From an uncultured bacterium (GTDB taxonomy: Bacteria > Patescibacteriota > Dojkabacteria > J137), in contig OY969472.1 in the NCBI GenBank assembly GCA_963700155.1, positions 744,690 to 808,689 of the forward strand: 64,000 nucleotides of DNA, in the 5' to 3' direction. The translations under genes were made by a program, and so were the position numbers. Below the pieces are notes generated by a model. It saw only the letters and a program-made list of their open reading frames with translations, made no database searches and was not told where the DNA came from. Shown here one piece after another: positions 4,167 through 29,481 of the stretch (its first letter is position 1; each line of letters begins with the position of its first letter).

Positions 4167-4222
4167 ATTATTAAATTAACTGAGTTATTTATTAACACGC
4201 TATTTTAGCATAAATTAAGGCT

Positions 4223-4756
4223 TTAAGCATTATTTGGAATAAGAAAATAAACATAACTAATTCCAATTTTCTTATTTTCAACTATATTCCATTTTTTAGC
4301 TAAAAAATCATCTAGTGGTTCATTACTCCTCAAAACTATAATACCGTTCTTTCTGAGGACCGTAGCGATTAATTTAAGGGCAATTTTTTTAGTGATAGCA
4401 AATGGAGGGTCAAGAAATATTATGTCGAAATTTTTATCAGTATTTTTTATAAAGATTTTATAATCTTTTCTAAAAATTTCGACAGGCTCCTCAACAAAAC
4501 TTAGGTTATCTTCTAAAAATTGCCCAGCTTCAATATCTTGTTCAACGAAAGTGCCGGAGTCAGCACCACGACTCAAAGCTTCAATACCAAGACTTCCAGA
4601 GCCAGCGAATAAATCAAGTATAGATTTTCCCTCGACGTTTGAACCTAAAGTATCAAAAATAACTGTTTTAATTCTGTCAGTTACCGGACGTGCTGACTCC
4701 GGCACTCTTAATGTTCTTCCTTTATATTTACCTGTGATTATTCTTGGTTTATCCAT
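4223..4756 (-). CDS. rsmD: 16S rRNA (guanine966-N2)-methyltransferase RsmD
   Basis: It has the SAM-binding motif DLFAGSGSLGIEALSRGA and the DPPF motif. Confidence 0.8.
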   Translation of the reverse strand: MDKPRIITGKYKGRTLRVPESARPVTDRIKTVIFDTLGSNVEGKSILDLFAGSGSLGIEALSRGADSGTFVEQDIEAGQFLEDNLSFVEEPVEIFRKDYKIFIKNTDKNFDIIFLDPPFAITKKIALKLIATVLRKNGIIVLRSNEPLDDFLAKKWNIVENKKIGISYVYFLIPNNA

Positions 4757-4769
4757 ATTATTATCTGTA

Positions 4770-5225
4770 TTACTTTTGACTTATTATATGATACAAAATT
4801 ATACCTACGGTTGTTGAAACATTTAATGAATTTTTTTTACCAAGCATCGGTAATTCTACAATTTTGTCGCTAATATTTAACAACTCAATATCCACACCAC
4901 TTATTTCGTTGCCAAAAATTAGACACACTTTATTGTTATATACAATATTAGAATAATCTTCGGAATTGCTTGCCTGTTCTACTGAAATAATACTAAAACC
5001 TTCTTTTTTTAAGTATTCAACAACTTCTAAAGCTGATTTTTTGTGCTCTGTTTTAACATAGTTCTCTGCTCCAAGAGCTGTCTTAGAGATTTTTTTATGA
5101 GTAATATCTGGAGTTATCCCACATAGATATAATTTTTTAACTCCAGCACCGTCGCAAGTCCTTAAAATCGCTCCAACATTCAACACAGAGCGTACATTGT
5201 CTAAAACAACTACTATTTCTTTCAT
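4770..5225 (-). CDS. SpoU/TrmH-family RNA 2'-O-methyltransferase (TrmL-like)
   Basis: It is 151 aa with SPOUT-fold motifs (NVGAILRTCDGAG, FGNEISG). Confidence 0.65.
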   Translation of the reverse strand: MKEIVVVLDNVRSVLNVGAILRTCDGAGVKKLYLCGITPDITHKKISKTALGAENYVKTEHKKSALEVVEYLKKEGFSIISVEQASNSEDYSNIVYNNKVCLIFGNEISGVDIELLNISDKIVELPMLGKKNSLNVSTTVGIILYHIISQK

Positions 5226-5246
5226 AAAGTGAATTTTGAATATTAT

Positions 5247-5987
5247 TTAACCTTCTAGATCAAGTCTTGAAGTTTCTTCACTTAATAATGCTTCTATACC
5301 TTGATCTGCTAGTTCTTTTGGTGTAAGGATTTTATCACCAATTTCATTCTTAGGTTTTAAAAATTCATTTTTTTGCTTTTCTTTCTTAGGAGACATTATA
5401 CTTAAAATAAAGTAAGTAAACATTAATAGTATATTAATTATAGATAGAGTTTTAATCGTCTCATCACTTGCATAAACATCATTTGAGAATCGAGTTTCTA
5501 TTTGATGTAAAGATAAATCAAGAGATTTAAAAGTTAGATTCATATAGCCAAAGTATTGATCTAGTAGTTGTTTATCGGATTCTTTTAATTGGTTATAAGT
5601 ATTGGTAATTATTTTATTTTGGATTTCACTTTTTATTATCGCCAATTGATTTGAGAGTAAATTAATAGACGTAAGTAAATCTATATTTTGAGATCTTGCG
5701 TATGTATTGTTTTCTTGATTAGTTAAACTTAATCCGTAGTCTAAAGTTTGTAAATACGTACTAAGCATGTCTGTGCTAGGAACTTCATGATTATTAAAAG
5801 ATTGGTTCATTTCATTGATATAATTCTTTAGTTCTTGAAATCTTTTTTGTGTTTCATTATATTTATCCAAGTTAATTCTTGACCCTAAATCTATAGATCC
5901 TATAAATGCTTCAATAATTATCATTATTACAGCTGAATAAAGAGTAACATTTTTTATACTTTGTTTTATGCTTTCGAATCTATTCAT
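5247..5987 (-). CDS. Hypothetical two-TM membrane protein, tandem paralog 1 of 4
   Basis: It is 246 aa. It has an N-terminal TM, a ~150 aa helical extracytoplasmic domain carrying a TLDY motif, a C-terminal TM, and a charged tail. Confidence 0.5.
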   Translation of the reverse strand: MNRFESIKQSIKNVTLYSAVIMIIIEAFIGSIDLGSRINLDKYNETQKRFQELKNYINEMNQSFNNHEVPSTDMLSTYLQTLDYGLSLTNQENNTYARSQNIDLLTSINLLSNQLAIIKSEIQNKIITNTYNQLKESDKQLLDQYFGYMNLTFKSLDLSLHQIETRFSNDVYASDETIKTLSIINILLMFTYFILSIMSPKKEKQKNEFLKPKNEIGDKILTPKELADQGIEALLSEETSRLDLEG

Positions 5988-5992
5988 GATTT

Positions 5993-6763
5993 TTAATTTT
6001 CTTGCTGATTTTGGTTTAATAAATCTTCTAGACTTGGTAAAGAGGACTCGTCAGTGATTTCTTCATCTTCATAATACATTGGAGGCATAAATTCGATTAT
6101 GTCTTCGATTTTCAATTTATCATTTCCATCTTCGGTTATATTTGCTCTTTTTTTTATTATAACTATTAGCCATAAAACAATATTAGCTGCGATAAGAGAA
6201 AGTCCAATTACAGTATATCTGTCAGAATAGTTTTGCTCTATATATTTCTGATTTGCTCTTGCAATAGCTTCATCACTAACAAAAGGAATTTTATTCAGTG
6301 TATTTCTTAAATCAGTAAAGAGTTTATTTATCTGAACTATTTCATCAGAATTAAAATTATTATTTGGCTGGTTAATTAAATCTTTTAGATTGTTTAAATA
6401 TTGATTGAGTAAGGTAAGTTGATGCATTATTTGCTCATCAAAGCTGTAGGAAAGGCTTAAGTTATAAACATCTTGCAGGCTATCATCTATAATTCTTTGA
6501 TAAGCTGTAACACCTTCTTCAGTATTATTTGAACCTTCGGAGACTTGATTCATAAAGTCATCAAGGATTCTTATGTGATCAGATAATTCAGTAGTTAATC
6601 TATGGTTATTTTCTAAGAAAGCAAGTCCTCTTTGCTTAGAACCCATATCACCTACAAAATAGAAATAAGTAATGATAGAAATTATTATAAATAAACTTTG
6701 TACTGGAGTAAGAAAACTACCTTTGTCAGATTCATATGTATTTTTCTTTAATTTTTCTGGCAT
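5993..6763 (-). CDS. Hypothetical two-TM membrane protein, tandem paralog 2 of 4 (acidic C-terminal tail)
   Basis: It is 256 aa with the same architecture as paralog 1. The tail is ...TEDGNDKLKIEDIIEF...EDEEITDESS. Confidence 0.5.
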   Translation of the reverse strand: MPEKLKKNTYESDKGSFLTPVQSLFIIISIITYFYFVGDMGSKQRGLAFLENNHRLTTELSDHIRILDDFMNQVSEGSNNTEEGVTAYQRIIDDSLQDVYNLSLSYSFDEQIMHQLTLLNQYLNNLKDLINQPNNNFNSDEIVQINKLFTDLRNTLNKIPFVSDEAIARANQKYIEQNYSDRYTVIGLSLIAANIVLWLIVIIKKRANITEDGNDKLKIEDIIEFMPPMYYEDEEITDESSLPSLEDLLNQNQQEN

Positions 6764-6780
6764 ATTATATTTAAATTTAA

Positions 6781-7533
6781 CTATAATTCTGCTTCAGTTT
6801 TATTATTCTTTAATAGTTCATCTAAACTTTCAAAAGTCTTGATGTCCTTTTCTTCGATTTCTCCATCATTATCTTGATCTATTTTTGCAATTGGTTCTTT
6901 AGTATTGTTTTTAAGTTTGGGAGGTTTAATAATACTTAGAATTATCCATAATATAGCGCATATGCTTGTAATAACTTCTCCAATCCTAAATAATATTGCA
7001 GCATTATCCATATCGTTATCATAATTTGCAATCGTTTTCTCTATAATTGCATTTAATTCTCCAAAATATTTATCAATATTAGTAAAGTTAATTTTTATCA
7101 ATTCTATTTGTTCAGAAGTTAAATTTGTTGATGTCTTTTCTAAGTTTACTGTGTATATTTGCTGAATTAAGGTTTGAACGTAGTCTAAACTGTTCAAAAT
7201 CTCATTTAAAGTTGCTGTGGGGTATATTGATTCAGAATTAGTATAAACACTTATTTTTGTAATATTATCATTAATTGCGCTTAAGTATATATTAAGTCTA
7301 CTCTGGCTAATTGTTCCGTTTTGGTCAAGAATATCAGATTCAATAGTATCTATATTTGAGTTTAGTGGAATAACTGTGCTCATTAAACTGTTAAGAGATT
7401 GTTTCTTTGTGTATTGCATTCCAGAGAAGATGGCCACTATAGCATCTAACACTGCAAGTAGTATTGTAATATAACCTAAGTATTTTCTTCTGAATATTTC
7501 AACCTTATATCTTGTAGAATCAAGTTGATCCAT
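6781..7533 (-). CDS. Hypothetical two-TM membrane protein, tandem paralog 3 of 4 (EF-hand-like loop DQDNDGEIEEKD in tail)
   Basis: It is 250 aa with the same architecture. The C-terminal loop DxDxDGxIxxxD is a near-canonical EF-hand loop. Confidence 0.5.
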   Translation of the reverse strand: MDQLDSTRYKVEIFRRKYLGYITILLAVLDAIVAIFSGMQYTKKQSLNSLMSTVIPLNSNIDTIESDILDQNGTISQSRLNIYLSAINDNITKISVYTNSESIYPTATLNEILNSLDYVQTLIQQIYTVNLEKTSTNLTSEQIELIKINFTNIDKYFGELNAIIEKTIANYDNDMDNAAILFRIGEVITSICAILWIILSIIKPPKLKNNTKEPIAKIDQDNDGEIEEKDIKTFESLDELLKNNKTEAEL

Positions 7534-7616
7534 AATTTAAATGATTAAATTTATGTCATGATTATACAATTATTCTGGAAATTATTAGAAAATAAATAAA
7601 AAGTTTAAGAGTAATC

Positions 7617-8342
7617 TTAACATTCGTTCCTACTTAGTAATTTTGCTTCTTCGATTGATAATTCACCGTCATCATCCAATTCTAAACTTTTTAATTGGTT
7701 TAATTCGATTTCATCATTCTTTCTTTTTCTTCTATTCCCTGCAGCCAAGCCAATTACATTGGTTATACTTAAGATCAGTCCGATAATAGATAGTACAAGA
7801 GTTGTTAGTCCAGCAATATAATCAATATTTTTCATGTCTATTTGGATACCATTTTCTTTTTGTTCCAATACTTGATAAATATCATTAAAAAGCTTGTCTA
7901 GATAATTGAAATAAGTCCTTGCAGCATCTAAGTCATCTTGAGTTAAACTAGACAGTTCTGAAGAAGAAAGTTTTGATAATTCTTCTAAATTATCCCTAAT
8001 ATTGGGAATATTATTTTTAATAGTTTCTAAACTTTGAGATATGTCATCATTACTAACTTGTTTGAATAAAGAATCAAGTGAATCTAAGGTGCTTTGGTAA
8101 AGTGAAAAAGTTGATGGTTGAAGATTTCCTCTATCTAAAAGATCTATCCTAAGAGCATTTACAGTTTCTTGAATTGGTTGCACACTCTTTTTTTGTTTTA
8201 AGGTGGATTCTAAGTTTTGATGTTCTACAAATTGTGAGGTTCCAGCAACTCCATCTATAATTCCTGTTAAAAGTATTAGTATCCATAAGAAACTCTCAAT
8301 ATTTTGTATAAGTTTTGGTTTCTCAATATTATTTTCTGGCAT
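7617..8342 (-). CDS. Hypothetical two-TM membrane protein, tandem paralog 4 of 4 (EF-hand-like loop ELDDDGELSIEE in tail)
   Basis: It is 241 aa with the same architecture. The C-terminal ExDxDGxLxxxE loop is EF-hand-like. Confidence 0.5.
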   Translation of the reverse strand: MPENNIEKPKLIQNIESFLWILILLTGIIDGVAGTSQFVEHQNLESTLKQKKSVQPIQETVNALRIDLLDRGNLQPSTFSLYQSTLDSLDSLFKQVSNDDISQSLETIKNNIPNIRDNLEELSKLSSSELSSLTQDDLDAARTYFNYLDKLFNDIYQVLEQKENGIQIDMKNIDYIAGLTTLVLSIIGLILSITNVIGLAAGNRRKRKNDEIELNQLKSLELDDDGELSIEEAKLLSRNEC

Positions 8343-8361
8343 TTTGTTTATCTAAAATATA

Positions 8362-10371
8362 TTACTCAAAGAGTTCAATTTTTTTAATGCCATGATTATA
8401 CAACCTTTCTGCAAATTTTTTACTTTTTTTTATAAGTTCAAGATTATCAAGTTTTGCAACTTTTAGTTTTGGAATTCCACTTTGCTTTGTGCCATAAATT
8501 TCACCTGGGCCGCGAAGCTGAAGGTCGTACTCTGCAATTTTGAGACCATCATTGCTTGAAGATAAATATTTTAGTCGTTCTAAAGCTGAGCGGCTGACAT
8601 CATCTGAATAGAATAAGAAGCACCAGCTTTGTATGTCGCTTCTTCCTACTCTCCCTCGAATTTGGTGAAGCTGTGCAAGTCCAAATCTTTCTGAACTTTC
8701 TATTACCATTACAGTTGCATTTGGAACGTCAATACCAACTTCTATAACCGAAGTTGATACGAGTATATCGTATTTATGTTCAAGAAATTCCTTCATTATT
8801 GCTGACTTTTCTTGTTCTTTCATCTTTCCGTGAAGAAGAGCGATTTTTCGCTTGCGAAAAATCGCTTGTAAGTGTTTAAAAGTCTCTTCAGCAGACTTGG
8901 CTTCTAGAATTTCTGACTCACTAATCAATGGACATATCCAATAGACTTGCTCACCATCTTTTATTTTTTGATCAATCCATTTATAAGAATCTTCTCTTTT
9001 TTCAGGAGGAACTAGATGTGTATTTATTGGAAGCCTTCCTTTTGGCTTAGTATTTATAAAACTTATTGAAACATCTCCAAAAAAAGCTTGCGCTATTGTC
9101 CTTGGAATTGGCGTTGCAGTCATATTAATAAAATGAGGATAGTATTTATCTTTAAAAATGGCTTCAAAAGGCTCTAAAAGCTCTTCTCTTTGCTGAACTC
9201 CAAACTTATGCTGCTCATCTACAATAACCATTCCCAAATCTTCTATAAGGTCTTTTTTGCGAGCTAAAACTGCTGAAGTTCCTATCAAGATATCATTAGA
9301 TTCGGCTTTTTTATTATCTGAAGTTACTAATTCAATTCCAATATCAAAATCTTTAAGTAAATTTGAAAATGTCAAAAAATGCTGCTTTGCCAGGATAGTT
9401 GTTGGAGCAAGAACTACACTTTGCATATTATTCATTGCCATTATCATTGTAGCTACAACTGCAACTATAGTTTTACCACTTCCAACATCACCTTGAATTA
9501 ATTCATTTAATAAATCACCTTTTGAAATTATGTTTTCGATATTTTCAATTACTTTATTCTGATCTTCTGTAAGTTTAAAAGGCAGAGAGCGGAAAAATTT
9601 ATTCAATTGAACCTGCATCGTTGGTACAGAAATATCAAACTTTGGAGCATCGAGTTTTCCGCTCTCTGCCCTTCTTTTCATTAACTTAATTTGAATAGCT
9701 ATTAATTCATAAAGTGATAAAAGTTCATTATATTTTTTTAGATCTTCAAAATTTTCTGGGAAATGTAGAAAATATATAGCTTTTCTTAAATTATCAGCTT
9801 TGACTCCTATCTCTTCTAACTCATTAGGAATTTCTAGTTGATTCATATTATCAACAAGATATTTAATTCTGTTTCGGAACCATTTTTTTGAAACACCTTG
9901 AGTTAAAGCATATTCAGGTGTAATTCTTGCTAGATGTACTAATTCTCTTGTACTCAAAACTTCTTCAAAAAGTACAGGAAAGAATTGAAATTTACCAACT
10001 TTGCTTTTTCGAAGTTTCCCAGAAAATATAAATTCTTTTTCTGGCTTTATTACATCCTTTAAATATGTCTGGTTGAACCAAGTTATGCTGATTTCACCTG
10101 TATTATCATGTACTTTAGCTTCTTGTAATGTTTTATGAGACCTTAAATATCCATTTTTAAAAGTATCTATCTTGACTCGAATTTGAAATGTATTTTCAAA
10201 ATCATGGTTATAAATTAAATCCTTTATTAAGGTAATAATTGATGTGTCAACGTATTTAGTGGGGAAATAAGTCAATAAATCTTTGACAGTGTAGATTTCA
10301 AGCTTTTCTAAATGTTTTGCATAAGCACCTTTGATTTGTGGCAGTACTGTTACTGAATCTTCAAGTTTCAT
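8362..10371 (-). CDS. recG: ATP-dependent DNA helicase RecG
   Basis: It is 669 aa with Walker A GDVGSGKT, a DEQHKFGV DEAH box, and an N-terminal wedge domain. Confidence 0.9.
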   Translation of the reverse strand: MKLEDSVTVLPQIKGAYAKHLEKLEIYTVKDLLTYFPTKYVDTSIITLIKDLIYNHDFENTFQIRVKIDTFKNGYLRSHKTLQEAKVHDNTGEISITWFNQTYLKDVIKPEKEFIFSGKLRKSKVGKFQFFPVLFEEVLSTRELVHLARITPEYALTQGVSKKWFRNRIKYLVDNMNQLEIPNELEEIGVKADNLRKAIYFLHFPENFEDLKKYNELLSLYELIAIQIKLMKRRAESGKLDAPKFDISVPTMQVQLNKFFRSLPFKLTEDQNKVIENIENIISKGDLLNELIQGDVGSGKTIVAVVATMIMAMNNMQSVVLAPTTILAKQHFLTFSNLLKDFDIGIELVTSDNKKAESNDILIGTSAVLARKKDLIEDLGMVIVDEQHKFGVQQREELLEPFEAIFKDKYYPHFINMTATPIPRTIAQAFFGDVSISFINTKPKGRLPINTHLVPPEKREDSYKWIDQKIKDGEQVYWICPLISESEILEAKSAEETFKHLQAIFRKRKIALLHGKMKEQEKSAIMKEFLEHKYDILVSTSVIEVGIDVPNATVMVIESSERFGLAQLHQIRGRVGRSDIQSWCFLFYSDDVSRSALERLKYLSSSNDGLKIAEYDLQLRGPGEIYGTKQSGIPKLKVAKLDNLELIKKSKKFAERLYNHGIKKIELFE

Positions 10372-10400
10372 AAGTCAATTATAACCCAAGTATACTTGTT

Positions 10401-10529
10401 TTATTTTCCAGTAGTAGCGATCTGAAACAGGAGAAGTAATGGAGGTGCAACAAGACTTGCAATGATTGCTATAGTTAAAATCCACCATAGTATTGTTTTG
10501 TGACTTTCTTTAAGTTTGATTTTTGCCAT
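10401..10529 (-). CDS. Possible small membrane protein (42 aa; MAKIKLKESHKTILWWILTIAIIASLVAPPLLLLFQIATTGK)
   Basis: It is too short to appear in the ORF track. It has one clear TM helix, but nothing else supports it. Confidence 0.2.
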   Translation of the reverse strand: MAKIKLKESHKTILWWILTIAIIASLVAPPLLLLFQIATTGK

Positions 10530-10570
10530 GTAGCAATATTACTACAATTTTTTTCTATTGTTAAATAAAC

Positions 10571-10873
10571 TTAAATAACCTGTTCATTTCTTAGTCTTTC
10601 AAAAAGCTCATCTAGTTTTTGTTCATCAACATATGGGTAATTATGGGGAGTAAGTTTATATTTTAAGAGTATTTTCCTTGCAAAATCTTCAGATGTACTT
10701 TTTTGACTAACAGTATTGAGTGCTTTCTCAGTAAGAATATAATTTATTCATTGGTTTAACTTAAATCCATAAGTTTGAGCTTCCTCTTTTAATATCTCAA
10801 TTATTTCTTCAGGAAGTCTTACTCTTGTTTGAACATTTTTATTTCTTTTATTATGATGTGTATTTTTACTCAT
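10571..10873 (-). pseudogene. Ribbon-helix-helix-like small ORF interrupted by an in-frame TGA (41 aa + TGA + 58 aa in one frame)
   Basis: MSKNT...RVRLPEEIIEILKEEAQTYGFKLNQ is followed by TGA, and INYILTEKAL...LRNEQVI then continues in the same frame. The rest of the window clearly uses TGA as a stop. Confidence 0.3.
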
Positions 10874-10926
10874 TGCAGAATTTTAACACAGGTGAAAGGA
10901 GGTGCTTTTAAAAATGCAACTTTTCG

Positions 10927-10979
10927 TGTGGCACAGAACCGTCACATTTCATGTCTTCTTTTGAGCCAATTCTGTGCCA
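10927..10979. repeat. Perfect 11-bp inverted repeat GTGGCACAGAA / TTCTGTGCCAC with 31-nt spacer in a 470-nt intergenic region
   Basis: I read this directly from the sequence. It could be a hairpin, an operator or a small RNA. Confidence 0.3.
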
Positions 10980-11344
10980 CTAGATTTTGTAACAAAAAAA
11001 GGATAGATAGCAGATCAATAAAAATTCAGTAAAGTTGCTTTCAGTGATTCTTAGTCAATAATTTATTCTACTGATGGAATACCAGTAAGTATTTTGGAAT
11101 TATCAGAAATTTTTCAAATTTATTTGGGAAATCATTTCTGAAATATTTAAACCTGAAACTTCCATAATAATATTTGCTATAGTTCTTTTCAACTTATTTT
11201 TATCAATCGTAATACCATTGATCCTATCTTCGATCAGTTTTGTCACTACTCTAGCCAATCTTATTTGTAGTAAATTAAACTACTGTTTAGTTAACCCAGA
11301 ATCTTCTAACTGTTCTTCAAGTAAATATTTCATATTTAATATTA

Positions 11345-11863
11345 TTATGCTTCAATTGCTTCTGCCCCAGCTTCCTTTAATAGTTCCAAGATTTCATTCA
11401 TAGTAGTAGTTTCTGTTAAAAATTCTCTTCTTGTATGTATTAGCTCATTTAATTTCATCTCCTGCTCTTTGGTAAGAAATGCTGTAAATTTTATTGGAGA
11501 AATATCATCACTGTGTCTAATAATTGTTACTCTTACTGAATAGCCTTCTGGAATAGAAGCATTTTCATAACTTTTAATTTCTTCATCGGAATCAAAATAA
11601 AGAAAACCTCCATAAAAATTTATTGATTTTCGTATTGTTTGATAGTTTCTTTCTACAAGTTCTGGGTTTCGAAAATTAAGTAGATCTGAACTTACCTTGT
11701 AACTATATAAAAAGCTTTTAATTTTTTCATCTGAAAAATCTAAGTTGGGATGCTCATTTGCAAAAAGCATTAAAGAATATTTGTTTTTTATTCTCATAGC
11801 TGAAGTTAGAATATTCATGTCTAAATCGGGAAATGAATCTGCCATAAGTTTTTTAATTAACAA
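11345..11863 (-). CDS. Hypothetical protein (172 aa) abutting the NrnA-like gene
   Basis: The ORF has a native AT-rich composition and no recognisable motif. Confidence 0.45.
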   Translation of the reverse strand: MLIKKLMADSFPDLDMNILTSAMRIKNKYSLMLFANEHPNLDFSDEKIKSFLYSYKVSSDLLNFRNPELVERNYQTIRKSINFYGGFLYFDSDEEIKSYENASIPEGYSVRVTIIRHSDDISPIKFTAFLTKEQEMKLNELIHTRREFLTETTTMNEILELLKEAGAEAIEA

Positions 11864-12898
11864 TTAAAAGCTTTCGGTCATTTCTAAATCATTGTTTTTT
11901 ATATATTCAACCAGTAACTTGCATAGATCTTCACTGTCTTTGACTTTATCATTAACTTGATAGTTTCCACCGGCGGCCATGAAATGGCCGCCGCCATTAA
12001 AAGCTTCAGCCAGTTTTCTGACATTTGGACCACCTGGAGTTGATCTGAATGAAATTCCAAGTGTATCTTCATAATCAGGTGTTACGACAAATCCCCAATT
12101 GTGATTCTTTACTTGTCGAAGAATAATATTTTTATACTTAGCGTTAGCGCTTTTAATCAATTCACTATCGAATTTATTTCTAACTTCAAGTGGTAAGTAT
12201 GAATATGTAAAAGGCGGCTTTCCCTGTAGTTCTACATTAGTTGTTTTAGCGATCATCAATTTTAGCAATTCAAACTCATCAGGTTCCATTTGGGAAAGCC
12301 GCAATTCTAAAGTTTGAACATCAAATTTACCAAAGTCTATCAATTCTTTCCCTATCGTAAATGTCTCTGAACTTTTGTAACTTAAATACCTGAATGTCCC
12401 AGTATCTCCTAGAATTCCAGTTAATATTACTTCTGCTACTTCTCTATCTAATAATTCCTTTCTATTTCTAAAAAAGTACTTATATATCAATTGTGAACAT
12501 GAAGCTGCTCCTACTTCACTAAAATCTAGAGTAAAATTATCAGCTTGATTTGGATGGTGGTCAATGCAAATTGATTTGAATTTAGATAAGTCTATTTTTT
12601 CTTCTTCATGTGCAAATCTATCTATTGTGTTTCCATCTAGGAATATTAAAGTATCATAATCATTAATAATATCGACAATATCCTTAACCCATTGAATCTT
12701 TTCATAATTTTTTAGGAAACTAAATGATTGGTATGGATTTTCTTCTGCAAAATATAATCCGTATTCTTTATCTGAATATGCTTTAGAAAGATAATCGTAC
12801 ATTGAAAGCATTGAGCATACAGCGTCCCAGTCTGGGAATTTATGCGAACAAAGAAATATTTTTTTTGAGTTTTTAATAATTTCTTCAAATTTATCCAT
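11864..12898 (-). CDS. nrnA: DHH/DHHA1 phosphoesterase (NrnA-like nanoRNase / pAp phosphatase)
   Basis: It has the DHH motif ICIDHHPN and the DHHA1 GGGH motif (NGGGHFMAAGG). It is 344 aa. Confidence 0.7.
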   Translation of the reverse strand: MDKFEEIIKNSKKIFLCSHKFPDWDAVCSMLSMYDYLSKAYSDKEYGLYFAEENPYQSFSFLKNYEKIQWVKDIVDIINDYDTLIFLDGNTIDRFAHEEEKIDLSKFKSICIDHHPNQADNFTLDFSEVGAASCSQLIYKYFFRNRKELLDREVAEVILTGILGDTGTFRYLSYKSSETFTIGKELIDFGKFDVQTLELRLSQMEPDEFELLKLMIAKTTNVELQGKPPFTYSYLPLEVRNKFDSELIKSANAKYKNIILRQVKNHNWGFVVTPDYEDTLGISFRSTPGGPNVRKLAEAFNGGGHFMAAGGNYQVNDKVKDSEDLCKLLVEYIKNNDLEMTESF

Positions 12899-12901
12899 AT
12901 T

Positions 12902-13567
12902 TTAAGCTTTTCCCTCCCATTCTTTCGCGAAGCGTTTTAAATAATCTTCCATGTATTTATGTCGGCTTTGGGCCATCTTTTTACCAGTTTTAGTATTCAT
13001 TAAATCTTTTAATTTTAACAACTTTTCATGAAAATGATTTATTGCAGTTCTTTTTGTTGTTCCAACCGCTTTAATATATTCATCAGTACTTTTATATGAA
13101 GGCACTGGAATTTCAGGATCATAAAAAACTTCTTTGTAAACCGCAGCTCCGGCAAATACTCTGGCGATTCCAATAGCACCTAAAGCATCTAACCTATCAG
13201 CGTCTTGAACAATCAATCCTTCAACACCTTTCATCTTATTCTTGCCTATCCCACCTTTAAAAGAGATATTATCAACGATGAAACATACTTGATCAATCAT
13301 TTTTGCATCAATACCTATTGATTCAAGAAATTCCTTTGATATTCTTGAACCTGCATGTAAGTCATCTTTATAAATCTTCCAGTCCCCAACATCATGAAGC
13401 AATGCTCCAAGTTCAATAAGAAAAAGATCTCCACCTTCCCTCTTTTGCAAATATTTAGCATTATTCCAAACCCTTTTTATATGCCACCAATCATGACTCG
13501 GTTCTGTATCTTCAAATTTTGATTTAACAAAATCTGCTGTTTTTTGAATAATATCTTTTTTATTCAT
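12902..13567 (-). CDS. HD-domain phosphohydrolase
   Basis: The H...HD motif reads WHIKRV...ALLHDVGDWK. It is 221 aa. Confidence 0.7.
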   Translation of the reverse strand: MNKKDIIQKTADFVKSKFEDTEPSHDWWHIKRVWNNAKYLQKREGGDLFLIELGALLHDVGDWKIYKDDLHAGSRISKEFLESIGIDAKMIDQVCFIVDNISFKGGIGKNKMKGVEGLIVQDADRLDALGAIGIARVFAGAAVYKEVFYDPEIPVPSYKSTDEYIKAVGTTKRTAINHFHEKLLKLKDLMNTKTGKKMAQSRHKYMEDYLKRFAKEWEGKA

Positions 13568-14076
13568 TTCCTTCTCTCTTTAAATAAGAGTTCTTGTCTA
13601 TGATCGTCAATATTAATAAAATCATCCGCTAAATCTATAAGCTCACTATTTGCTGTTCTTTCAAAAGCAATAACTTCAACAAGACAACCTGCAGATTGTA
13701 GATAATTTACTACTGGTTTAAAATCTCCATCTCCAGAAATCAGTACAATAGAATCAACCTTAGGAGCTAATCTTACAGCATCAATCGCAATTCCAACATC
13801 CCAGTCACCTTTTTTTGCTCCACCAAAGAAAGTTTGAAGTGGTTTTTCCTTAGTTTCAAACCCAGCATTATTAACTGCTTCAAAGAACTCATTATCTTCT
13901 CCGGGTTGTGCATTTATAACATATGCTAAAGCTCGAGTTAAAATCCTATCTTTTACTGCAAGCTGAAGAAGGTTTTTGAAGTTTATTTTAGCTTTATGAA
14001 GATTCTTGGCTGAATAATATAGATTTTGGACATCAACTAATACTGCTACTCTCTGGTCTTTATTTCGAACAATCAT
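13564..14076 (-). CDS. NYN/LabA-like (PIN-fold) domain protein
   Basis: It has VAVLVDVQNLYY...ISGDGDF, typical of the LabA/NYN family. It is 170 aa. Confidence 0.65.
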   Translation of the reverse strand: MIVRNKDQRVAVLVDVQNLYYSAKNLHKAKINFKNLLQLAVKDRILTRALAYVINAQPGEDNEFFEAVNNAGFETKEKPLQTFFGGAKKGDWDVGIAIDAVRLAPKVDSIVLISGDGDFKPVVNYLQSAGCLVEVIAFERTANSELIDLADDFINIDDHRQELLFKERRK

Positions 14077-14098
14077 AATTATTTATATATAAAAAATA

Positions 14099-14413
14099 TT
14101 AATTTTCAAGATTTTGTTTTATAAATCTAACAAGGATCTGATAAGAATTCATAAATTCAATAAATGTATTTAATATTGGATCATCAATCTTATGTTCTCG
14201 AGATCGATCTATACGAATATTATGTAAGAGTGTATTAGCATTATATTGGAATTCTTCTAGTTCATGGATTAACTGTTGTAAAGAAATTGTTCCTGATTTA
14301 GAAATGATTTCATCAAGTTCATAAGTTAGACTATTAATAATTTCACTATCGGTGCCAACAATACCCTCAAGTTTCTCTTGATTATCTAATGTAGGAAATC
14401 GTAATTGAGTCAT
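14099..14413 (-). CDS. Hypothetical protein (104 aa)
   Basis: This is an ORF with no recognisable motif. Confidence 0.4.
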   Translation of the reverse strand: MTQLRFPTLDNQEKLEGIVGTDSEIINSLTYELDEIISKSGTISLQQLIHELEEFQYNANTLLHNIRIDRSREHKIDDPILNTFIEFMNSYQILVRFIKQNLEN

Positions 14414-14582
14414 TAGAATTTATATAAAAATTCATTTAATAAGTTTAGCATTTATATTGTTTTAGGACTATTATCAGAGTTTATAACTTTGTAGTAGCTC
14501 TTATTTAACGAAATGGATAAATATTTAAGTCGATAATAAAAATTACTAATATTGAAATTAAAACCTATACATATTAAACTGA

Positions 14583-14602
14583 TTGATAATGTAAATTATC
14601 AA
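14583..14602. promoter_or_regulatory. Perfect palindrome TTGATAAT-gtaa-ATTATCAA immediately upstream of the receiver-domain gene start
   Basis: It ends 10 nt upstream of the ATG at 14612, inside the divergent intergenic region. It is a candidate operator. Confidence 0.3.
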
Positions 14603-14611
14603 TTTTAATCT

Positions 14612-15034
14612 ATGAAAAAAATTAAACTAAAGACTGATTTTCCTGTTGATACAGGAAAAAAAGAAGAAAATAATAAAAAAATTTTAATTGTAGAAGATGA
14701 AGAAGCTTTATCCTCTACTTTATCATTAAAGCTTGAATCAGCTGGGTTTAAGACTTTTGTTGCAGTAAATGGAATAGATGCTTTAGAAATGATTAAAAAT
14801 AATAAGTATGATCTTGTTTTACTTGATTTGATGCTCCCAGGTAAAGATGGCTTTGAAGTATTACAAGATTTACATAATGATAATTATGGTGGATTGGTTA
14901 TTGTATTGTCAAATTTGAGTCAGGAAGAAGATATTGACAGAGTTTTATATTTAGGTGCGAAAAAGTTCTTAGTGAAGTCTAAGGTTCAATTGTCTGAAAT
15001 AGTAGATAATATTAAAGAACTACTGCATTTATGA
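14612..15034 (+). CDS. Standalone response-regulator receiver (CheY-like) protein
   Basis: It has the acidic pocket ILIVEDEE, the phospho-acceptor Asp context LVLLDLMLPG, and a conserved Lys (KKFLVK). It is 140 aa with no output domain. Confidence 0.8.
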   Translation: MKKIKLKTDFPVDTGKKEENNKKILIVEDEEALSSTLSLKLESAGFKTFVAVNGIDALEMIKNNKYDLVLLDLMLPGKDGFEVLQDLHNDNYGGLVIVLSNLSQEEDIDRVLYLGAKKFLVKSKVQLSEIVDNIKELLHL

Positions 15035-15294
15035 ATAATTTAGATGGAAAAAATTTATTAAAGATTCTTACTGAAATTTTGATTTAGCAAATCTTCTTAT
15101 AGATAAATATATGACATCTATACCAGCAGATCTAATAACTGGAAGCAGTAAAAATACTGGTTATGAAATCTGTAAGAATTCAAATAATAGAATCACAGTT
15201 ACTGCAAGAGATAGTGAAAATGGGAAATTAATATCAGTTAATATTTAGTTAGTAACAATTTGGATTAATAAAAGTTAGATTTTATCCAGAATTT

Positions 15295-16497
15295 ATGGCT
15301 AAAAATACAGTATCTCCCGTTCTTTTTGATATCTCTGCTGATATTGCTGGAGAAATCCCTATAGATTTAGTACAGGAATGGGCCAACAGCAACCTTACAA
15401 AAAAAACACATAATGAGCTGTTGGCCCCTTTTATAATTGAAGGAACGGTAGTCTCTTCTGATTCTGCAGGACTTAGTAAGTTAAGTGAGGAAAAAGGATT
15501 AATTGAAGTTATGAAACTTGTGAATGATCCTAAGGAAGTAATATTTAAACATGGTGTAAGTATTGGGGGAAGAGCAATCGGAACATGGTTTGCTGATAAC
15601 ACAGAAATGATTTATAGTAATGATATAGATTTGAATGAACTTCTAAAATATTTAGCTTCAGCTCAGAGGGAAATTTCTAAACTACCAGTTCAGGTCGGAT
15701 TATGTGTCCATAAAGGCAAATTCATTGAGATAGGTAATGGTTTATATGGTGATGATGCAGATTATGTTGAAAGTATTGCTGAAGATTATACTTCTGGTGG
15801 TGAAATTGTTGTTTCTAATAAAGTTAAGAATCTTGCTAGAAAACATAAAACTCTGTTTGATTTAAGACAAGATCTTGTAAATGAATTCGGTCAAATTTTC
15901 AAATTAAATTATGAACCCTTAGAAGTAAAATCATTTCCTTTTATAGATGAGCTCTATCCAATTCCTTTCAGTGAGGAATTTTATAATGATATGAAGAGCG
16001 GAAATTTTGATGAAACTGAAAAGAAATACACTCAAAAACAAATCGTAGTATTAGTTAAAGTTGACCACCCAAATGATACTCTACTTTTAACGCACCTTAG
16101 TAATCTCGCACTTTCAAATTATTACTCAAGAAAAATTTCCGCTCAGTTTCCAATTTCAGAGATAAAATCAAATGGTCAGTTAGCAATTTATGTTACAAAT
16201 AATGTAATCGCTTCAATTGAATTTGCTTTAGAATTGAGGAAGACTTTGAAAGATAATGATTTTCTTTGTAAAATTGGTATTTCAAGTGGTGAGGTTTTGG
16301 TATTCGATATGCGTTCCGGAGGGAAAGAAATTGCTGGTGAGCCTGTTAATATTGCTTCAAAATTGGCTGAAGATTATGGTAAATTCGGATATATTTATAT
16401 TCATGATTCTATTTCTTTACCAGGAAAATATACAAAAAAAGCAGATGATGTTATCGCAAAAGTTTCCCATGTAGAACTAAAAGGATGGAAAATGTAA
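15295..16497 (+). CDS. Putative tandem class III nucleotidyl cyclase-homology-domain (CHD) protein
   Basis: There are two halves, each with cyclase-like motifs. Half 1 has VLFDISADIAG and VGLCVHKGKFIEIGNGLYGDDADYVESIAEDYTSGGEIVVS. Half 2 has KIGISSGEVLVFD...GEPVNIASKLAEDYGKFGYIYIHDS (cf. IGIHxGxVvxG..G....Y.v.GdxVNxAsRle..g..g.I.vS). This is motif-level evidence only. Confidence 0.4.
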   Translation: MAKNTVSPVLFDISADIAGEIPIDLVQEWANSNLTKKTHNELLAPFIIEGTVVSSDSAGLSKLSEEKGLIEVMKLVNDPKEVIFKHGVSIGGRAIGTWFADNTEMIYSNDIDLNELLKYLASAQREISKLPVQVGLCVHKGKFIEIGNGLYGDDADYVESIAEDYTSGGEIVVSNKVKNLARKHKTLFDLRQDLVNEFGQIFKLNYEPLEVKSFPFIDELYPIPFSEEFYNDMKSGNFDETEKKYTQKQIVVLVKVDHPNDTLLLTHLSNLALSNYYSRKISAQFPISEIKSNGQLAIYVTNNVIASIEFALELRKTLKDNDFLCKIGISSGEVLVFDMRSGGKEIAGEPVNIASKLAEDYGKFGYIYIHDSISLPGKYTKKADDVIAKVSHVELKGWKM

Positions 16498-16512
16498 ATA
16501 TTTATCTCTAAA

Positions 16513-16902
16513 TTAAGCTACATTTGACGTAGGCATAGCTTTAAAAAGTTCAGATAAATTATTTTCAGAGTCTAAAAAGAAAGCACTCCAGCCAAAATTT
16601 TCAATTGTTATTGTTGGACCTAATGATTTCCCTCCATTTGCCTCAATCTCTTTCATTTTTTCATCAATATCATCCACATAAATAACAACTACTGTACTTT
16701 TGACATGTTTCCTGTCAACGATATCTCCATTGATTGCTCCAGGTGTTTTCGGTCTCATTGTACTCTTATCAACTTCAGTTGTATTAGCCATGGCAACGTC
16801 TTGTTGATACGGTACAATTTTCCAACCGAAGACTGTTTGGTAAAATTTCTTTGCTCTCTCCATATCGTCAGCAGGAATTTCAAAGTGTACTACGCTGTTC
16901 AT
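16513..16902 (-). CDS. VOC (glyoxalase/bleomycin-resistance) family protein
   Basis: It is 129 aa with a betaalphabetabetabeta pattern. The N-terminus reads VVHFEIPADDMERAKKFYQTVFGW. Confidence 0.65.
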   Translation of the reverse strand: MNSVVHFEIPADDMERAKKFYQTVFGWKIVPYQQDVAMANTTEVDKSTMRPKTPGAINGDIVDRKHVKSTVVVIYVDDIDEKMKEIEANGGKSLGPTITIENFGWSAFFLDSENNLSELFKAMPTSNVA

Positions 16903-25647: not shown

Positions 25648-26063
25648 TTTTCAAGATTGATATAAAGGTAAAATTAATATGTCACTCTAGATTATAAATT
25701 GAATATGGTTTTTATTAAAGTCTTAAGATTTGATAAGTAATATCCTTTTAAAATTGTTCATTTTCTTAATCAGTAAAATAGTTCTATATACTCAAAGTGA
25801 TTATTGGTATGTTATGTTTATGTATCCAAGGAGTATTAAGTTGTTTATCGTAAATGCTATTAAAAATCAATATAGAACATTAAAAATTGATTTTTTAGAT
25901 GTTATTAGTTACAATCATAATAGAGCCTACGCTATCCTCAAAGTTTGGCGACATAGCTAACTCAGGCTCATGTAGGCTTCATGTGAGGTAAAATTCTTGG
26001 GTTTTCTCACTTCCAAGATTGAACTCGCTCTTTAACATATCATTCGTAATTAAATATTGTTTT

Positions 26064-26108
26064 GGTCTCCTCTATTTGTATTTTTTTAAGTATACATAGA
26101 GGAGATCA
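26064..26108 (+). promoter_or_regulatory. 12-bp-stem hairpin (GGTCTCCTCTAT...ATAGAGGAGATC, one G-U) 22 nt upstream of the acquired GT2 gene; RBS GGGAGGG follows
   Basis: I read the inverted repeat directly. It lies at the AT-rich to GC-rich transition. Confidence 0.3.
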
Positions 26109-26129
26109 AAACATTAGGGAGGGAATCCA

Positions 26130-27329
26130 ATGGCAGTAAGACTGATGGAACCCCAAATTCCTTCTCTGAGGGAGTTTGAGGAAGATGAACTTTGGGACTT
26201 GCTCTTCTATGGGCAAGCTCCAAAAAAACCTATAACACCTATCGTAGACTGTATGCTTCCTGCTCATGACGAGGAAGCAAACATCGAGGCAACCGTAGAG
26301 AGTTTGTTTTCACAAACTCTACAACCAAACCGTGTAATTGTTGCTGCAGATAACTGCAGCGACAATACTATCCCGATCCTTGAAAGATTGGTAGATAAAT
26401 ATCGTGGGCGGCTCATTTATTTTGAGACCGTTGATAATTCTGCCAAAAAAGCTGGAGCGCTGAATCAAGCGCTCCAGTACCTTTCACATGAGGCGCAGTA
26501 TGTGCTTCAGATGGATGCAGACACAAAGTTAAGCCCAAACTTGATAGAAGAAGCTATTAAAGAGCTTCGAGCTAATCACAAGTTGGGTGGTGTTTGTTCC
26601 AGGTTCGGAGTATTCCCCTACAAGGGGAAGAATCCATGGCATTGGTTTCTCTGGAAGTTACAGGAAATGGAGTACGCTACAAGCGACTCTAGCCGAGTTG
26701 AAGGCCTTGGGGGTACGAAAGTCCTCTCAGGGGCCGTCGTAGTATTCTGGAGATTTGCTCTTGAGCAAGTGTCGTGGGAACATGGCCTTAGTGAACCAGA
26801 ACAGAAAGATAAGGGAAATGTGTGGTCTGAGAGCACAATTGTCGAAGACTATTCATTGACCCTTGACCTGAAGGAACTTGGATGGAAAGTCCAAGCCGGG
26901 ATGGGCATGATGTCGTGGACCGATACCATGCTGACGTTGTGGGATCTCTGGGATCAGAGGTTCCGCTGGCATTACGGGACTTGGCTCGAGTTGGAGCGAC
27001 GCGGGTGGAATAAGACCACCCGTCACGATATTCTCGAGCTTTGTTTGCATTACTTCATATTGGTGTGCCTTGTGATTTTCTTAGGCACTTTGGTCGCGAT
27101 GGTGATAATTGGGATCCCGATTCAGTTCAACGCGATTGGGCTTTCGGTATTGCTCGTCGCGTGGGCAAATAGGTTGTACCGGTTCTCATATATGAGAGAG
27201 CCAAAATGGTACGATCTATTGATCGCGATCATTTTAATTCCTGAAGAAGTGTATTCTATCTACAGGAATATCAACCTGACCGTGGCTCTTATCCGGAGCT
27301 TGAGGACGAAGTCTCCGCAGAAGTGGTAA
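26130..27329 (+). CDS. Processive family-2 glycosyltransferase (PgaC/NodC/cellulose-synthase-like polysaccharide synthase) in a high-GC acquired segment
   Basis: It has DxD (QMDADTK), the Q(R/Q)xRW motif (DQRFRWHYG), and C-terminal TM helices. It is 399 aa. Local GC is about 50%, against a background of about 30%. Confidence 0.7.
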   Translation: MAVRLMEPQIPSLREFEEDELWDLLFYGQAPKKPITPIVDCMLPAHDEEANIEATVESLFSQTLQPNRVIVAADNCSDNTIPILERLVDKYRGRLIYFETVDNSAKKAGALNQALQYLSHEAQYVLQMDADTKLSPNLIEEAIKELRANHKLGGVCSRFGVFPYKGKNPWHWFLWKLQEMEYATSDSSRVEGLGGTKVLSGAVVVFWRFALEQVSWEHGLSEPEQKDKGNVWSESTIVEDYSLTLDLKELGWKVQAGMGMMSWTDTMLTLWDLWDQRFRWHYGTWLELERRGWNKTTRHDILELCLHYFILVCLVIFLGTLVAMVIIGIPIQFNAIGLSVLLVAWANRLYRFSYMREPKWYDLLIAIILIPEEVYSIYRNINLTVALIRSLRTKSPQKW

Positions 27330-27358
27330 ATGTTCGATAACAGGGAGGTATAACTACC

Positions 27359-27733
27359 ATGAACTACGATCCACCTTTCTTGCCGGTAACCGGAGCAGCT
27401 TTTGCCACTGGTGCTGGCGCATACTTACAATGGACGTGGCCAGTGATCCTGGCTGCGGCTGTTGTGTCGTTTGTAATTCTCGCATTTGGGATGATGCTCT
27501 TGCGACGGAATGAAAGCCGGCTGCTCAAATCCGGTGTCAAGGTTCGTCGCAGTACCCTCCCATACATGATCGGCGGAGTCATCGGCATTGTCGTGGGTAT
27601 CGTCGGCGCGGCGCTTGAATTACCCGCACTTTTCGTGATCCCAGCTATCCTGGTCTCGGTGATCCTCGTCGCGGCGCTGCTTGGGGGCTTTCGCAGCAAT
27701 TTCCCTAAACAGCAGCTCGCCCAAGTCGAATGA
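27359..27733 (+). CDS. Small polytopic membrane protein (124 aa) co-transferred with the GT2 synthase
   Basis: It has several hydrophobic helices and is rich in Gly and Ala. It is GC-rich and is followed by a strong terminator. Confidence 0.5.
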   Translation: MNYDPPFLPVTGAAFATGAGAYLQWTWPVILAAAVVSFVILAFGMMLLRRNESRLLKSGVKVRRSTLPYMIGGVIGIVVGIVGAALELPALFVIPAILVSVILVAALLGGFRSNFPKQQLAQVE

Positions 27734-27743
27734 TGTGTTAGAA

Positions 27744-27773
27744 GGGGGCGGTCCGACGTGTCGGACCGCCCCC
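27744..27773 (+). terminator. GC-rich rho-independent terminator-like hairpin GGGGGCGGTCCGAC..GTCGGACCGCCCCC
   Basis: This is a perfect 14-bp arm (at most 12 bp paired with a real loop). It lies downstream of the 124-aa gene at the GC-to-AT boundary. Confidence 0.6.
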
Positions 27774-27843
27774 TAAAACTTTCTTTTATAAATTCAAAAA
27801 TTTCTACTCTACTATAATCTTGAAATAGGTCGAATATTTTTAT

Positions 27844-29481
27844 TTAATTCTCTTGAGTTGCTTCTGGAGTGCTGAGTATTGCTTGATTATTCCCAATATC
27901 AAATTCAAAAATTGGAACCATTCTAGCTTGAAGTAATGGTGCAATATTTGGATCTACAGGTTCGTCTGCATAAGGCTCAGCACAGTAAAATCCAAGCAAA
28001 TCTCTTACAGGGTCAAGTGGCGGCCCATCATAATCTGAAAACTCGAGGATATCAACCGGCCCTCTTAAACCAGCAGCTTCATCTATAAAAGCTTGATTCA
28101 AAGCTTGGGTTTGTTGTGGGCTGATATAAAATAATCCTATTAATTTACCGTGTTCAGTATTCCCATTTTGAGTTATCGTGAATGGTGCATCTTTATAATA
28201 ATCTCGCCTTATCTTTCCTTCTGCTGAAGTAACATTAGTCCAGGCTAATTGGCTTCCAGTTTCTTCTACGTCTGCTCTTAATGGATCTGCAGGAAATTGG
28301 GACCCGTTTGCTAAATATCCTGAGTGAATAGTTTGAACTAAAACTCCATTATATTGCATCCAAACTGGATTGTCTTGTGCAAAAGGATCTCCAGCTAAAA
28401 AATTATCAGTAGGATTCATTTGTCTAGGATAAATTAGTAAATCAAATTCATTTCTGTTCCAAACTTGAGCAGGCTTTTCTATAACTAATTCAGTTAATGG
28501 ACCTTTCTCAATACCAATAGTCCCAAAGTTAATTGAACCTATATGGAAAGGCACAAAATTTTCTACTTCAAATCTTGGTATGATTGATAAAGTTGTTGGT
28601 CTATTCATTCCAAATAGATTCCAGAATTGTATATCTGGAACTGTAAGATTTGGATCTCTTCTACGATATAATCCAATAAATACATCTCTAAAAGCATTAT
28701 TTAATTGGATAATAAACTCAGGGTTCATAAAGTCTTCTGGAGTATATTTAACTTTACCTCCTGTTAGTATATCTGATGCTAAATTACTCAATATTTGGAA
28801 AGCTTGATCAACTGTAAGGTTAGTTCCAACTCCCTGGATATAATAATCATACGAATTTCCATTAATTCCATGTTCTTCTTTATATGCTTGTTGAATAATT
28901 TCTAAAAAGGCTCTAAAGTTACCGTAAGTGATTTCAGAATATAATTGTTCAGGAGTTTGTATACCTGCAACTTCATTTAAATAGCCATTATTATATAACC
29001 CTGCAGCAACAGCATTATATTGCAACGATTGCAGAAATTCTTCTGCAACTAAACTTTGAGTTACATTACTTAAATGATCCTTCCCAAAAGATATACTGCT
29101 AAACTGAACAGTACCATCTCCGCTCACCTCCATCATCGTAGATCCCCAGCTTCCTCCTCTATTGTGCTCAATATCATAAGTAATTTCATCACTTGTAATA
29201 ATGGGTATTTGGTCAATAAATGCTTCAATTTGAGCATCGCTCATTTCAGGGTGAAATAGCTTGACACTATTATGTATAAAGCTTCTAATTTCAGGATTAT
29301 TAAATGCGTAATTGATTGAGGGATATTGATTATGTGGAATGATAATTGCATCTGGTGATAAAACAATATTTATAGGTGTTGGATCAGCTGGTAAATTTGA
29401 TTGTGCATCAATAGATTGTTGTGAACCAATCCCAAGCATTGATGCTGTTATTGCCAGTGCCGCTAAACTCTTTCTATTCAT
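27844..29481 (-). CDS. Secreted hypothetical protein (545 aa, signal peptide)
   Basis: It has an N-terminal signal peptide (MNRKSLAALAITASMLGIG) and no recognisable catalytic motif. Confidence 0.5.
   Translation of the reverse strand: MNRKSLAALAITASMLGIGSQQSIDAQSNLPADPTPINIVLSPDAIIIPHNQYPSINYAFNNPEIRSFIHNSVKLFHPEMSDAQIEAFIDQIPIITSDEITYDIEHNRGGSWGSTMMEVSGDGTVQFSSISFGKDHLSNVTQSLVAEEFLQSLQYNAVAAGLYNNGYLNEVAGIQTPEQLYSEITYGNFRAFLEIIQQAYKEEHGINGNSYDYYIQGVGTNLTVDQAFQILSNLASDILTGGKVKYTPEDFMNPEFIIQLNNAFRDVFIGLYRRRDPNLTVPDIQFWNLFGMNRPTTLSIIPRFEVENFVPFHIGSINFGTIGIEKGPLTELVIEKPAQVWNRNEFDLLIYPRQMNPTDNFLAGDPFAQDNPVWMQYNGVLVQTIHSGYLANGSQFPADPLRADVEETGSQLAWTNVTSAEGKIRRDYYKDAPFTITQNGNTEHGKLIGLFYISPQQTQALNQAFIDEAAGLRGPVDILEFSDYDGPPLDPVRDLLGFYCAEPYADEPVDPNIAPLLQARMVPIFEFDIGNNQAILSTPEATQEN

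Follow-up and report, generated by a model that had tools for sequence, protein, structure and literature searches.

The stretch of DNA analysed here, the window, comprises 64,000 nucleotides (nt) of an uncultured bacterium of the Dojkabacteria (Patescibacteriota; contig OY969472.1, positions 744,690 to 808,689), and between its recG and spoU genes (junction 5226-8361 of the window) lies an array of four minus-strand genes, here called A to D, which encode small membrane proteins of one shared design. An earlier note on this DNA had described four consecutive minus-strand genes for proteins of 241-256 amino acids (aa), and open reading frames (ORFs) with exactly these boundaries are indeed found there, D being the copy that adjoins recG. 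The layout of the array is given below, where TM1 and TM2 are the first and second transmembrane (TM) segments.

5247-5987, minus strand: gene A, 246 aa, ATG start; TM1 aa 14-32 (nt 5892-5948), ectodomain aa 33-179 (5451-5891), TM2 aa 180-198 (5394-5450), tail aa 199-246 (5250-5393).
5993-6763, minus strand: gene B, 256 aa, ATG start; TM1 aa 20-38 (nt 6650-6706), ectodomain aa 39-184 (6212-6649), TM2 aa 185-203 (6155-6211), tail aa 204-256 (5996-6154).
6781-7533, minus strand: gene C, 250 aa, ATG start; TM1 aa 19-37 (nt 7423-7479), ectodomain aa 38-183 (6985-7422), TM2 aa 184-202 (6928-6984), tail aa 203-250 (6784-6927).
7534-7616, minus strand: spacer between D and C, 83 nt, AT-rich, with a TATAAT-like hexamer; the only sizeable gap in the array.
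7617-8342, minus strand: gene D, 241 aa, ATG start; TM1 aa 15-33 (nt 8244-8300), ectodomain aa 34-181 (7800-8243), TM2 aa 182-200 (7743-7799), tail aa 201-241 (7620-7742).

Calculated from base composition, a chance ORF of about 245 codons has a probability of ~1e-9, and the opposite strand holds no ORF of at least 60 aa anywhere in 5247-8342. The genes are closely spaced, with 5 nt between A and B, 17 nt between B and C and 83 nt between C and D. Their DNA has a guanine-plus-cytosine (GC) content of 26-30%, and because both GC and GC3 (GC at third codon positions) resemble those of the neighbouring housekeeping genes, we regard the array genes as native. The 83-nt spacer may be an internal promoter site; promoter-like matches in the array region were no commoner than in shuffles, and the promoter and terminator scans gave results no better than shuffles. 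An Rfam scan of the window returned four tRNAs only, none of them close to the array. No Shine-Dalgarno-like motif precedes any of the seven genes in 4167-10411, among them recG, spoU and rsmD.

Kyte-Doolittle hydropathy profiles place two hydrophobic segments in each of A to D, at about residues 14-38 and 180-203, which frame a middle domain of 146-152 aa and leave an acidic tail of 41-53 aa. Lysine and arginine are distributed unevenly around these segments: the short N-terminus has 2-5 of them and the stretch of 15 residues past TM2 has 5-6, but the 15 residues that border each segment towards the ectodomain have only 0-2. By the positive-inside rule, this distribution puts the two termini on the inner side of the membrane and the middle domain on the outer side, and the four proteins thus probably insert as helical hairpins with both ends cytoplasmic and a helical domain of about 147 aa outside the cell. 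Hydropathy and charge counts therefore bear out the arrangement first proposed for these proteins, namely TM1, an external helical domain and TM2 with a positive inside, with one correction: the domain had been called periplasmic, and while its location outside the cell stands, the word itself should be extracytoplasmic. Outside the family, the same architecture occurred in 12 of ~2040 ORFs of at least 150 aa (1.68 Mb of fetched loci), and four such ORFs in a row are not due to chance.

Pairwise identity among A to D is 16-22%. When searched with phmmer against the 77 ORFs of the window, D matched C at E ~4e-10 and A at 3e-6, and C matched A at 0.02-0.07; B showed no link to A, C or D in pairwise search. 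B is the most divergent paralogue: it is collinear with a profile of D, C, A and P0005, a fifth member from a second genome (hhalign P = 1.6e-4), and matches P0005 itself with E = 1e-3. Sequence comparison thus indicates that A to D are true but very divergent paralogues, and the tandem paralogy claimed for them at the outset is upheld by the significant D-C and D-A matches and, for B, by the profile alignment. Two residues are invariant in all five members, a Tyr at the start of predicted helix 2, within Y-x-x-[TAIQ]-[LI]-[DN], and a Phe in predicted helix 4. These are conserved in place of the (T/S)LD(Y/S) motif that the earlier note had described as recurring, which in its literal form is confined to A (TLDY) and D (TLDS).

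The family has a very narrow distribution. A HMMER profile of the four proteins, run against 1.84 billion representative proteins, retrieved only A to D and P0005 (243 aa, E = 4e-8), and when D, the five-sequence profile and P0005 served as queries for word-indexed searches of 5.8 billion clusters, only self matches came back. Among ~15 billion proteins, the family consists of five proteins in two genomes. No further paralogue was detectable in the source genome (a 1.14-Mb contig), where the genome-wide count that had been suggested yields A to D only. Either this clade invented the family recently, or members elsewhere have diverged too far to be recognised.

P0005 is encoded in single copy (6369-7100) on a Logan contig, L002, in the order recG-[P0005]-spoU-rsmD-rpmF-nusB-rnc, and is linked to D by phmmer at 6e-20. 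Similarity and gene order together identify it as the orthologue of D; it too lies between recG and spoU, in a related genome. As the P0005 gene overlaps the ends of both its neighbours in L002, it is probably co-transcribed with the housekeeping genes. The junction was also inspected in more distant Dojkabacteria: in L003, L004 and L005 (at ~12000) spoU follows recG directly, with no insert, and in L006 the junction (11995-16617) holds six unrelated genes for secreted or anchored proteins of ~240 aa, one of them peptidase-like by eye. These six were considered as distant paralogues and rejected, as they are related neither to the family nor, for the most part, to one another. Since it is empty in L003-L005 and carries other genes in L006, the recG-spoU junction is a variable site. 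Relatives do not keep the tandem array, a question raised when the array was first noted: L002 has one copy, and L003-L005 and L006 have none, so that copy number at the junction among relatives is 0, 1 or 4. The data fit either an expansion from one to four copies or a contraction from four to one. The relatives of its RecG assign the source organism to Candidatus Dojkabacteria. In a recG-anchored synteny search of GTDB genomes, the closest RecG proteins had best identities of 50-54%, and Joint Genome Institute (JGI) metagenomes contained nothing closer than 54%; because no RecG above 54% was found elsewhere, the clade is represented only by the window genome and L002.

Comparison of the window with L002 also gives a measure of evolutionary rate. 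For the proteins that flank the array, identity between the two ranges from 49% to 94%, with most at 70-78% (RecG 74%, SpoU 73%, NusB 77%, NYN protein 94%), whereas D and P0005 share 30%. At the nucleotide level, the flanks align at 68-81% and the paralogue region shows no similarity. By these comparisons, members of the family change several-fold faster than the genes next to them.

Some further observations concern the same loci. In Ruminococcus and other Clostridia, a conserved ORF of ~260-290 aa with two TM segments and no Pfam family lies ~2 kb downstream of recG (L027 8344-9195; L029 12968-13807; also L032, L035, L036, L040, L041 and L047); the ORFs in the Ruminococcus loci were considered as relatives and set aside, being unrelated by sequence. 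A 5.8-kb Logan contig, L001, from run ERR11571143 is 100% identical to window 5209-11051, and this run is a sample in which the source organism can be found. Between rnc and rpsP, L002 carries two extra genes (9753-11339; 353 and 171 aa, no Pfam match on record) that are missing from the window, where the rnc-rpsP spacing is ~120 nt.

No assignment to an established family emerged from profile searches. In scans of all members, no match to Pfam, NCBIfam, PHROGs or PADLOC exceeded a curated threshold, and LemA (PF04011), which the earlier note had named as an example of a known family, matched none of A to D even at E<=10. LemA, 4HB_MCP, TarH and Wzz-like identities were rejected, none of them having support from hidden Markov models (HMMs). 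The earlier note had not been able to place the proteins in a known family and, judged by these libraries, there is indeed none to which they can be assigned.

The fold of the ectodomain was therefore approached through structure prediction, with AlphaFold2 (AF2) models of C and D built from the five-sequence alignment. The model of C (mean predicted local distance difference test score, pLDDT, of 66, with 70-80 over the TM segments and ectodomain) has helices at 2-70, 77-99, 106-131 and 140-201, and that of D (mean pLDDT 61) at 10-71, 76-96, 103-123 and 135-218. Both show the same topology, TM1-α1/α2/α3/α4-TM2, with helix breaks at homologous alignment columns; α1 is continuous with TM1 and α4 with TM2, both of them long, and α2 and α3 are short (~21-26 aa). 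With moderate confidence, the models thus point to an up-down four-helix bundle. The best conserved ectodomain patch between D and P0005, RGN[LI]Q.STFSLY, corresponds to the α1-α2 turn, which the predicted topology puts, again with moderate confidence, at the membrane-distal tip of the bundle.

Foldseek searches of the PDB with these models found the closest geometry among periplasmic four-helix-bundle (4HB) sensor domains. Template modelling scores (TM-scores), normalised to the target, were 0.78 for the LytS N-terminal domain (5xsj_L, root-mean-square deviation 3.1 Å), 0.65 for the PcaY ligand-binding domain (6s1a), 0.64 for the Adeh_2942 sensor (4k0d) and 0.61 for a NarQ sensor-TM fragment (6xyn). 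The likeness to such sensors that the earlier note had proposed, and for which it had recommended this very comparison, is therefore supported by superposition and by the best geometry but not by statistical significance, E-values being 0.02 or above. Foldseek against viral structures gave nothing significant, and a profile run against PDB sequences matched nothing but designed coiled coils and, below threshold, calmodulin.

Like the 4HB sensor domains (Tar/TarH PF02203, 4HB_MCP PF12729, NarX/NarQ, LytS-N and PcaY), the family has a helical ectodomain between TM1 and TM2, with both ends inside; the sensor ectodomain has ~145 aa, as it does here, and helices 1 and 4 are likewise predicted to be continuous with the TM segments. 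Unlike them, the family has no HAMP, kinase or MCP output, and the lack of a kinase or MCP output that had been noted at first sight holds, as the tail is only 41-53 aa long and no such Pfam domain is present. Helices 2 and 3 are short by comparison, so that the membrane-proximal part is predicted to be a two-helix stalk. There is also no sequence match to the Pfam models of these sensors, and Foldseek E-values are not significant. As far as the models go, the sensor likeness is one of fold and topology only and gives no evidence of homology.

The tails carry a second recognisable element, a loop of the EF-hand type, whose state differs among the paralogues.

5313-5348, minus strand: decayed loop relic of A, aa 214-225, NEIGDKILTPKE; aligned column, no pattern match.
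6098-6133, minus strand: decayed loop relic of B, aa 211-222, EDGNDKLKIEDI; no pattern match.
6841-6879, minus strand: loop of C, aa 219-231, DQDNDGEIEEKDI; exact match to PROSITE PS00018.
7647-7682, minus strand: loop of D, aa 221-232, ELDDDGELSIEE; matches a loose loop pattern, same alignment column as C and P0005.

The loop of C is the only PS00018 match in the 77 ORFs of the window, and composition-preserving shuffles of the tail give p = 7e-4. That of D fails PS00018 at position 1 (Glu for Asp) and at the hydrophobic residue after the loop, and that of P0005, DLDNDGEIISSE, is near-canonical in the same alignment column, with Ile at position 9. D and P0005 both keep Asp or Asn at positions 3 and 5, Gly6, Ile or Leu8 and Glu12; position 12 of the C loop is Asp. 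When the tails alone were compared with PDB sequences, EF-hand proteins made up nearly all the top matches of C, D and P0005: those of C were all of this kind (lanmodulin 0.0017, calmodulin 0.0027), D retrieved EhCaBP2 (0.0087) and calbindin D9k (0.045), and P0005 retrieved a CDPK EF-hand (0.012), these being whole-sequence E-values improved by several target repeats per query motif, with per-repeat E-values that are not significant. The tails of A and B, which are just as acidic, found no EF-hand protein in the same comparison. The phmmer alignments of the C and D tails to calmodulin and EhCaBP reach into both flanking helices, and the hydrophobic residues of the entering helix of C align with those of calmodulin EF-1.

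The claim that two tails contain EF-hand loops can thus be kept for C, which fits exactly, and for D, which fits nearly, and can be extended to P0005, but the Pfam score stays below its cut-off. Measured against the EF-hand as such (PS00018; EF-hand_1/5/6), a loop of 12 residues whose ligands occupy positions 1, 3, 5 and 12, with Gly6 and a hydrophobic position 8, C conforms exactly, D and P0005 nearly, and A and B not at all. Known motifs of this kind include single EF-hands that become paired through dimerisation, and loop-helix DxDxDG motifs. Unlike paired EF-hands, the family has one motif per chain, located directly past a TM helix, so that pairing would need dimerisation; and, unlike an EF-hand, the tails are given no confident helix-loop-helix by AlphaFold. 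Because A and B are without it, the loop is not essential to the core function of the family. By its pattern of conservation, a single EF-hand-like motif is genuinely conserved in the D/P0005/C branch, where it is a putative Ca2+ site, and is dispensable in A and B.

We read A to D as one fast-evolving family of membrane proteins, restricted to its lineage, that has expanded in tandem and would serve as a surface binding module which dimerises, has no output and carries a small tail for binding Ca2+ or a partner, a reading that we hold tentatively, at a probability of roughly 40%. On this reading, the ectodomain would be a surface binding or recognition module, for which a ligand, a partner in the envelope and the surface of a host or partner cell are conceivable targets. 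The proteins would work as homo- or heterodimers, by analogy with 4HB sensors, and in such a dimer two single EF-hand-like loops would meet at the cytoplasmic face, where the paired loops may form a small Ca2+- or partner-binding unit that is the sole 'output' or anchor. Duplication and rapid divergence might then be the response of a host-dependent bacterium to diversifying pressure on a protein exposed at its surface.

A number of observations weigh against this proposal. The function is wholly inferred, as there is no experimental or annotated relative. With regard to the ectodomain, AF2 confidence is only moderate, with mean pLDDT values of 61 and 66 from five sequences; all Foldseek E-values are at least 0.02, and the match to designed four-helix bundles is just as good. 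The sensor families of Pfam give no help: 4HB_MCP (PF12729) has no match in A to D at E<=10, and TarH (PF02203) matches only D, at E 0.057 and 13.8 bits against a threshold of 25.2, over TM2 (aa 181-220). TM1 may be cleaved as a signal peptide. With regard to the tail, Pfam EF-hand scores are below threshold (C tail against EF-hand_1, 14.8 bits versus 25.4, E 0.02), and D, P0005, A and B have no match to PF00036, PF13405 or PF13202; the AF2 tails of C and D have pLDDT values below 50 and are modelled as disordered; the loop is absent in two of the four paralogues, A and B; and an EF-hand in the cytoplasm would meet only sub-micromolar Ca2+. Finally, the rapid divergence could equally reflect weak constraint.

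Other explanations account for parts of the same evidence. A to D could be structural scaffolds of the envelope or membrane, whose ectodomains oligomerise to organise the wall, the S-layer or the type IV pilus and whose acidic tails are spacers. This would fit the lack of an output domain, the coiled-coil-like sequence rich in Asn, Gln, Ser and Thr, the apparently constitutive co-transcription with housekeeping genes and the presence of PilM, a PilN-like protein and PilO 3-5 kb away. We nevertheless consider it unlikely: the pil genes are on the opposite strand with seven housekeeping genes in between, partners of conserved machines are usually conserved, while this family is missing from Dojkabacteria with adjacent recG and spoU, divergence is several-fold faster than that of the neighbours, and an EF-hand-like loop kept between orthologues that are only 30% identical speaks against a mere spacer. 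A weaker case can be made that A to D are remote members of the Mycoplasma MG_279/MG_280 family, represented by NCBIfam TIGR04527 ('mycoplas_twoTM'), and share with it a surface module of genome-reduced, host-dependent bacteria. Proteins of that family likewise have ~250 aa, two TM segments and adjacent paralogues in a genome-reduced bacterium, and the profile length of 248 fits the size of A to D. B matches the model with E = 4.6e-5, its residues 59-203 being collinear with model positions 58-203 of 248 (145 residues); the match survives removal of both TM segments (18.7 bits, E = 1e-3), and neither six ectodomain shuffles of B with the TM segments intact nor reversed B gave any match. Yet the score is 23.2 bits against a cut-off of 125, and B is the only one of the five members to match, A, C, D and P0005 failing both at full length and as ectodomain plus TM2. 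Moreover, the ectodomain of D is equally weakly matched by other Mycoplasma-specific families (MSC_0620, E = 4.8e-4, and the MAG2950 lipoprotein family), which suggests attraction between helical proteins of AT-rich genomes. The TIGR04527 family is itself uncharacterised, a literature search on MG_279/MG_280 and TIGR04527 found nothing relevant, and the match of B is an unconfirmed lead. We judge membership to be distinctly unlikely; it would be compatible with the binding-module reading, the two not being mutually exclusive.

Two further possibilities appear to us highly improbable. Divergent tandem arrays are typical of immunity and exclusion genes, and rapidly diverging, lineage-specific paralogues at a variable junction might be taken for membrane immunity or exclusion proteins directed against a membrane-targeting toxin or phage; but the array is flanked by recG and spoU, with no toxin, bacteriocin, secretion or mobile-element gene adjacent, its GC content is native, and no PADLOC or PHROG match is significant. 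We give slightly less credence still to the idea that the genes are what is left of the N-terminal parts of chemoreceptors or sensor kinases, decayed and drifting with little or no function after loss of their cytoplasmic modules. The 4HB-like topology, the missing output domain and the very fast divergence would all be expected of such remnants, whereas five intact ORFs of 241-256 aa in DNA of 28% GC (chance ~1e-9), a common tail motif and the invariant Tyr and Phe would not. In addition, no fragment of a HAMP, HisKA or MCP-signal domain lies downstream, where the genes abut each other and spoU, and no Pfam sensor family matches.

Other features of the window were recorded alongside the array. 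A type IV pilus assembly cluster occupies 101-2213 on the plus strand and encodes PilM (truncated at the first listed start), a PilN-like protein of 194 aa, for which the only Pfam match is a spurious one to a baculovirus family, and PilO; the same pil cluster is carried by L002. Positions 26001-28000 form an island of 46% GC in a background of ~29% GC, with a family-2 glycosyltransferase (26130-27329, plus strand) and an ORF of 124 aa with no Pfam match (27359-27733, plus strand), and this island may have been horizontally acquired. Three ORFs had no Pfam match at E<=1e-5 (27844-29481, minus strand, 545 aa; 15295-16497, plus strand, 400 aa; 11345-11863, minus strand, 172 aa), and by this measure they are presumed to be further lineage-specific proteins.

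To return to the binding-module reading of A to D, it can be carried further, to a picture that we offer as a long shot. The proteins would then be a hitherto undescribed class of stand-alone, output-less 4HB surface receptors in bacteria belonging to the candidate phyla radiation (CPR), in which binding at the distal tip would set the geometry of the dimer and hence the pairing of the cytoplasmic EF-hands, giving a minimal Ca2+-linked transmembrane switch; tandem duplication would have diversified it for interaction with hosts or partners, and it may share ancestry with MG_279/MG_280.

Bacteria of the CPR (Patescibacteria) rely on other cells, and membrane proteins that are lineage-specific and have no assigned role abound in their genomes. 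The recG-spoU array is a clean, small example of these, in which the ectodomain layout of a sensor is joined to a minimal EF-hand-like tail where a conventional transmitter would be. Should that tail bind Ca2+, and should the ectodomain bind a ligand of the host or of the envelope, the proteins would be among the simplest transmembrane signalling or anchoring devices, and would also be candidate determinants of partner specificity in Dojkabacteria. If not, the array still documents the speed at which surface proteins turn over in these lineages.

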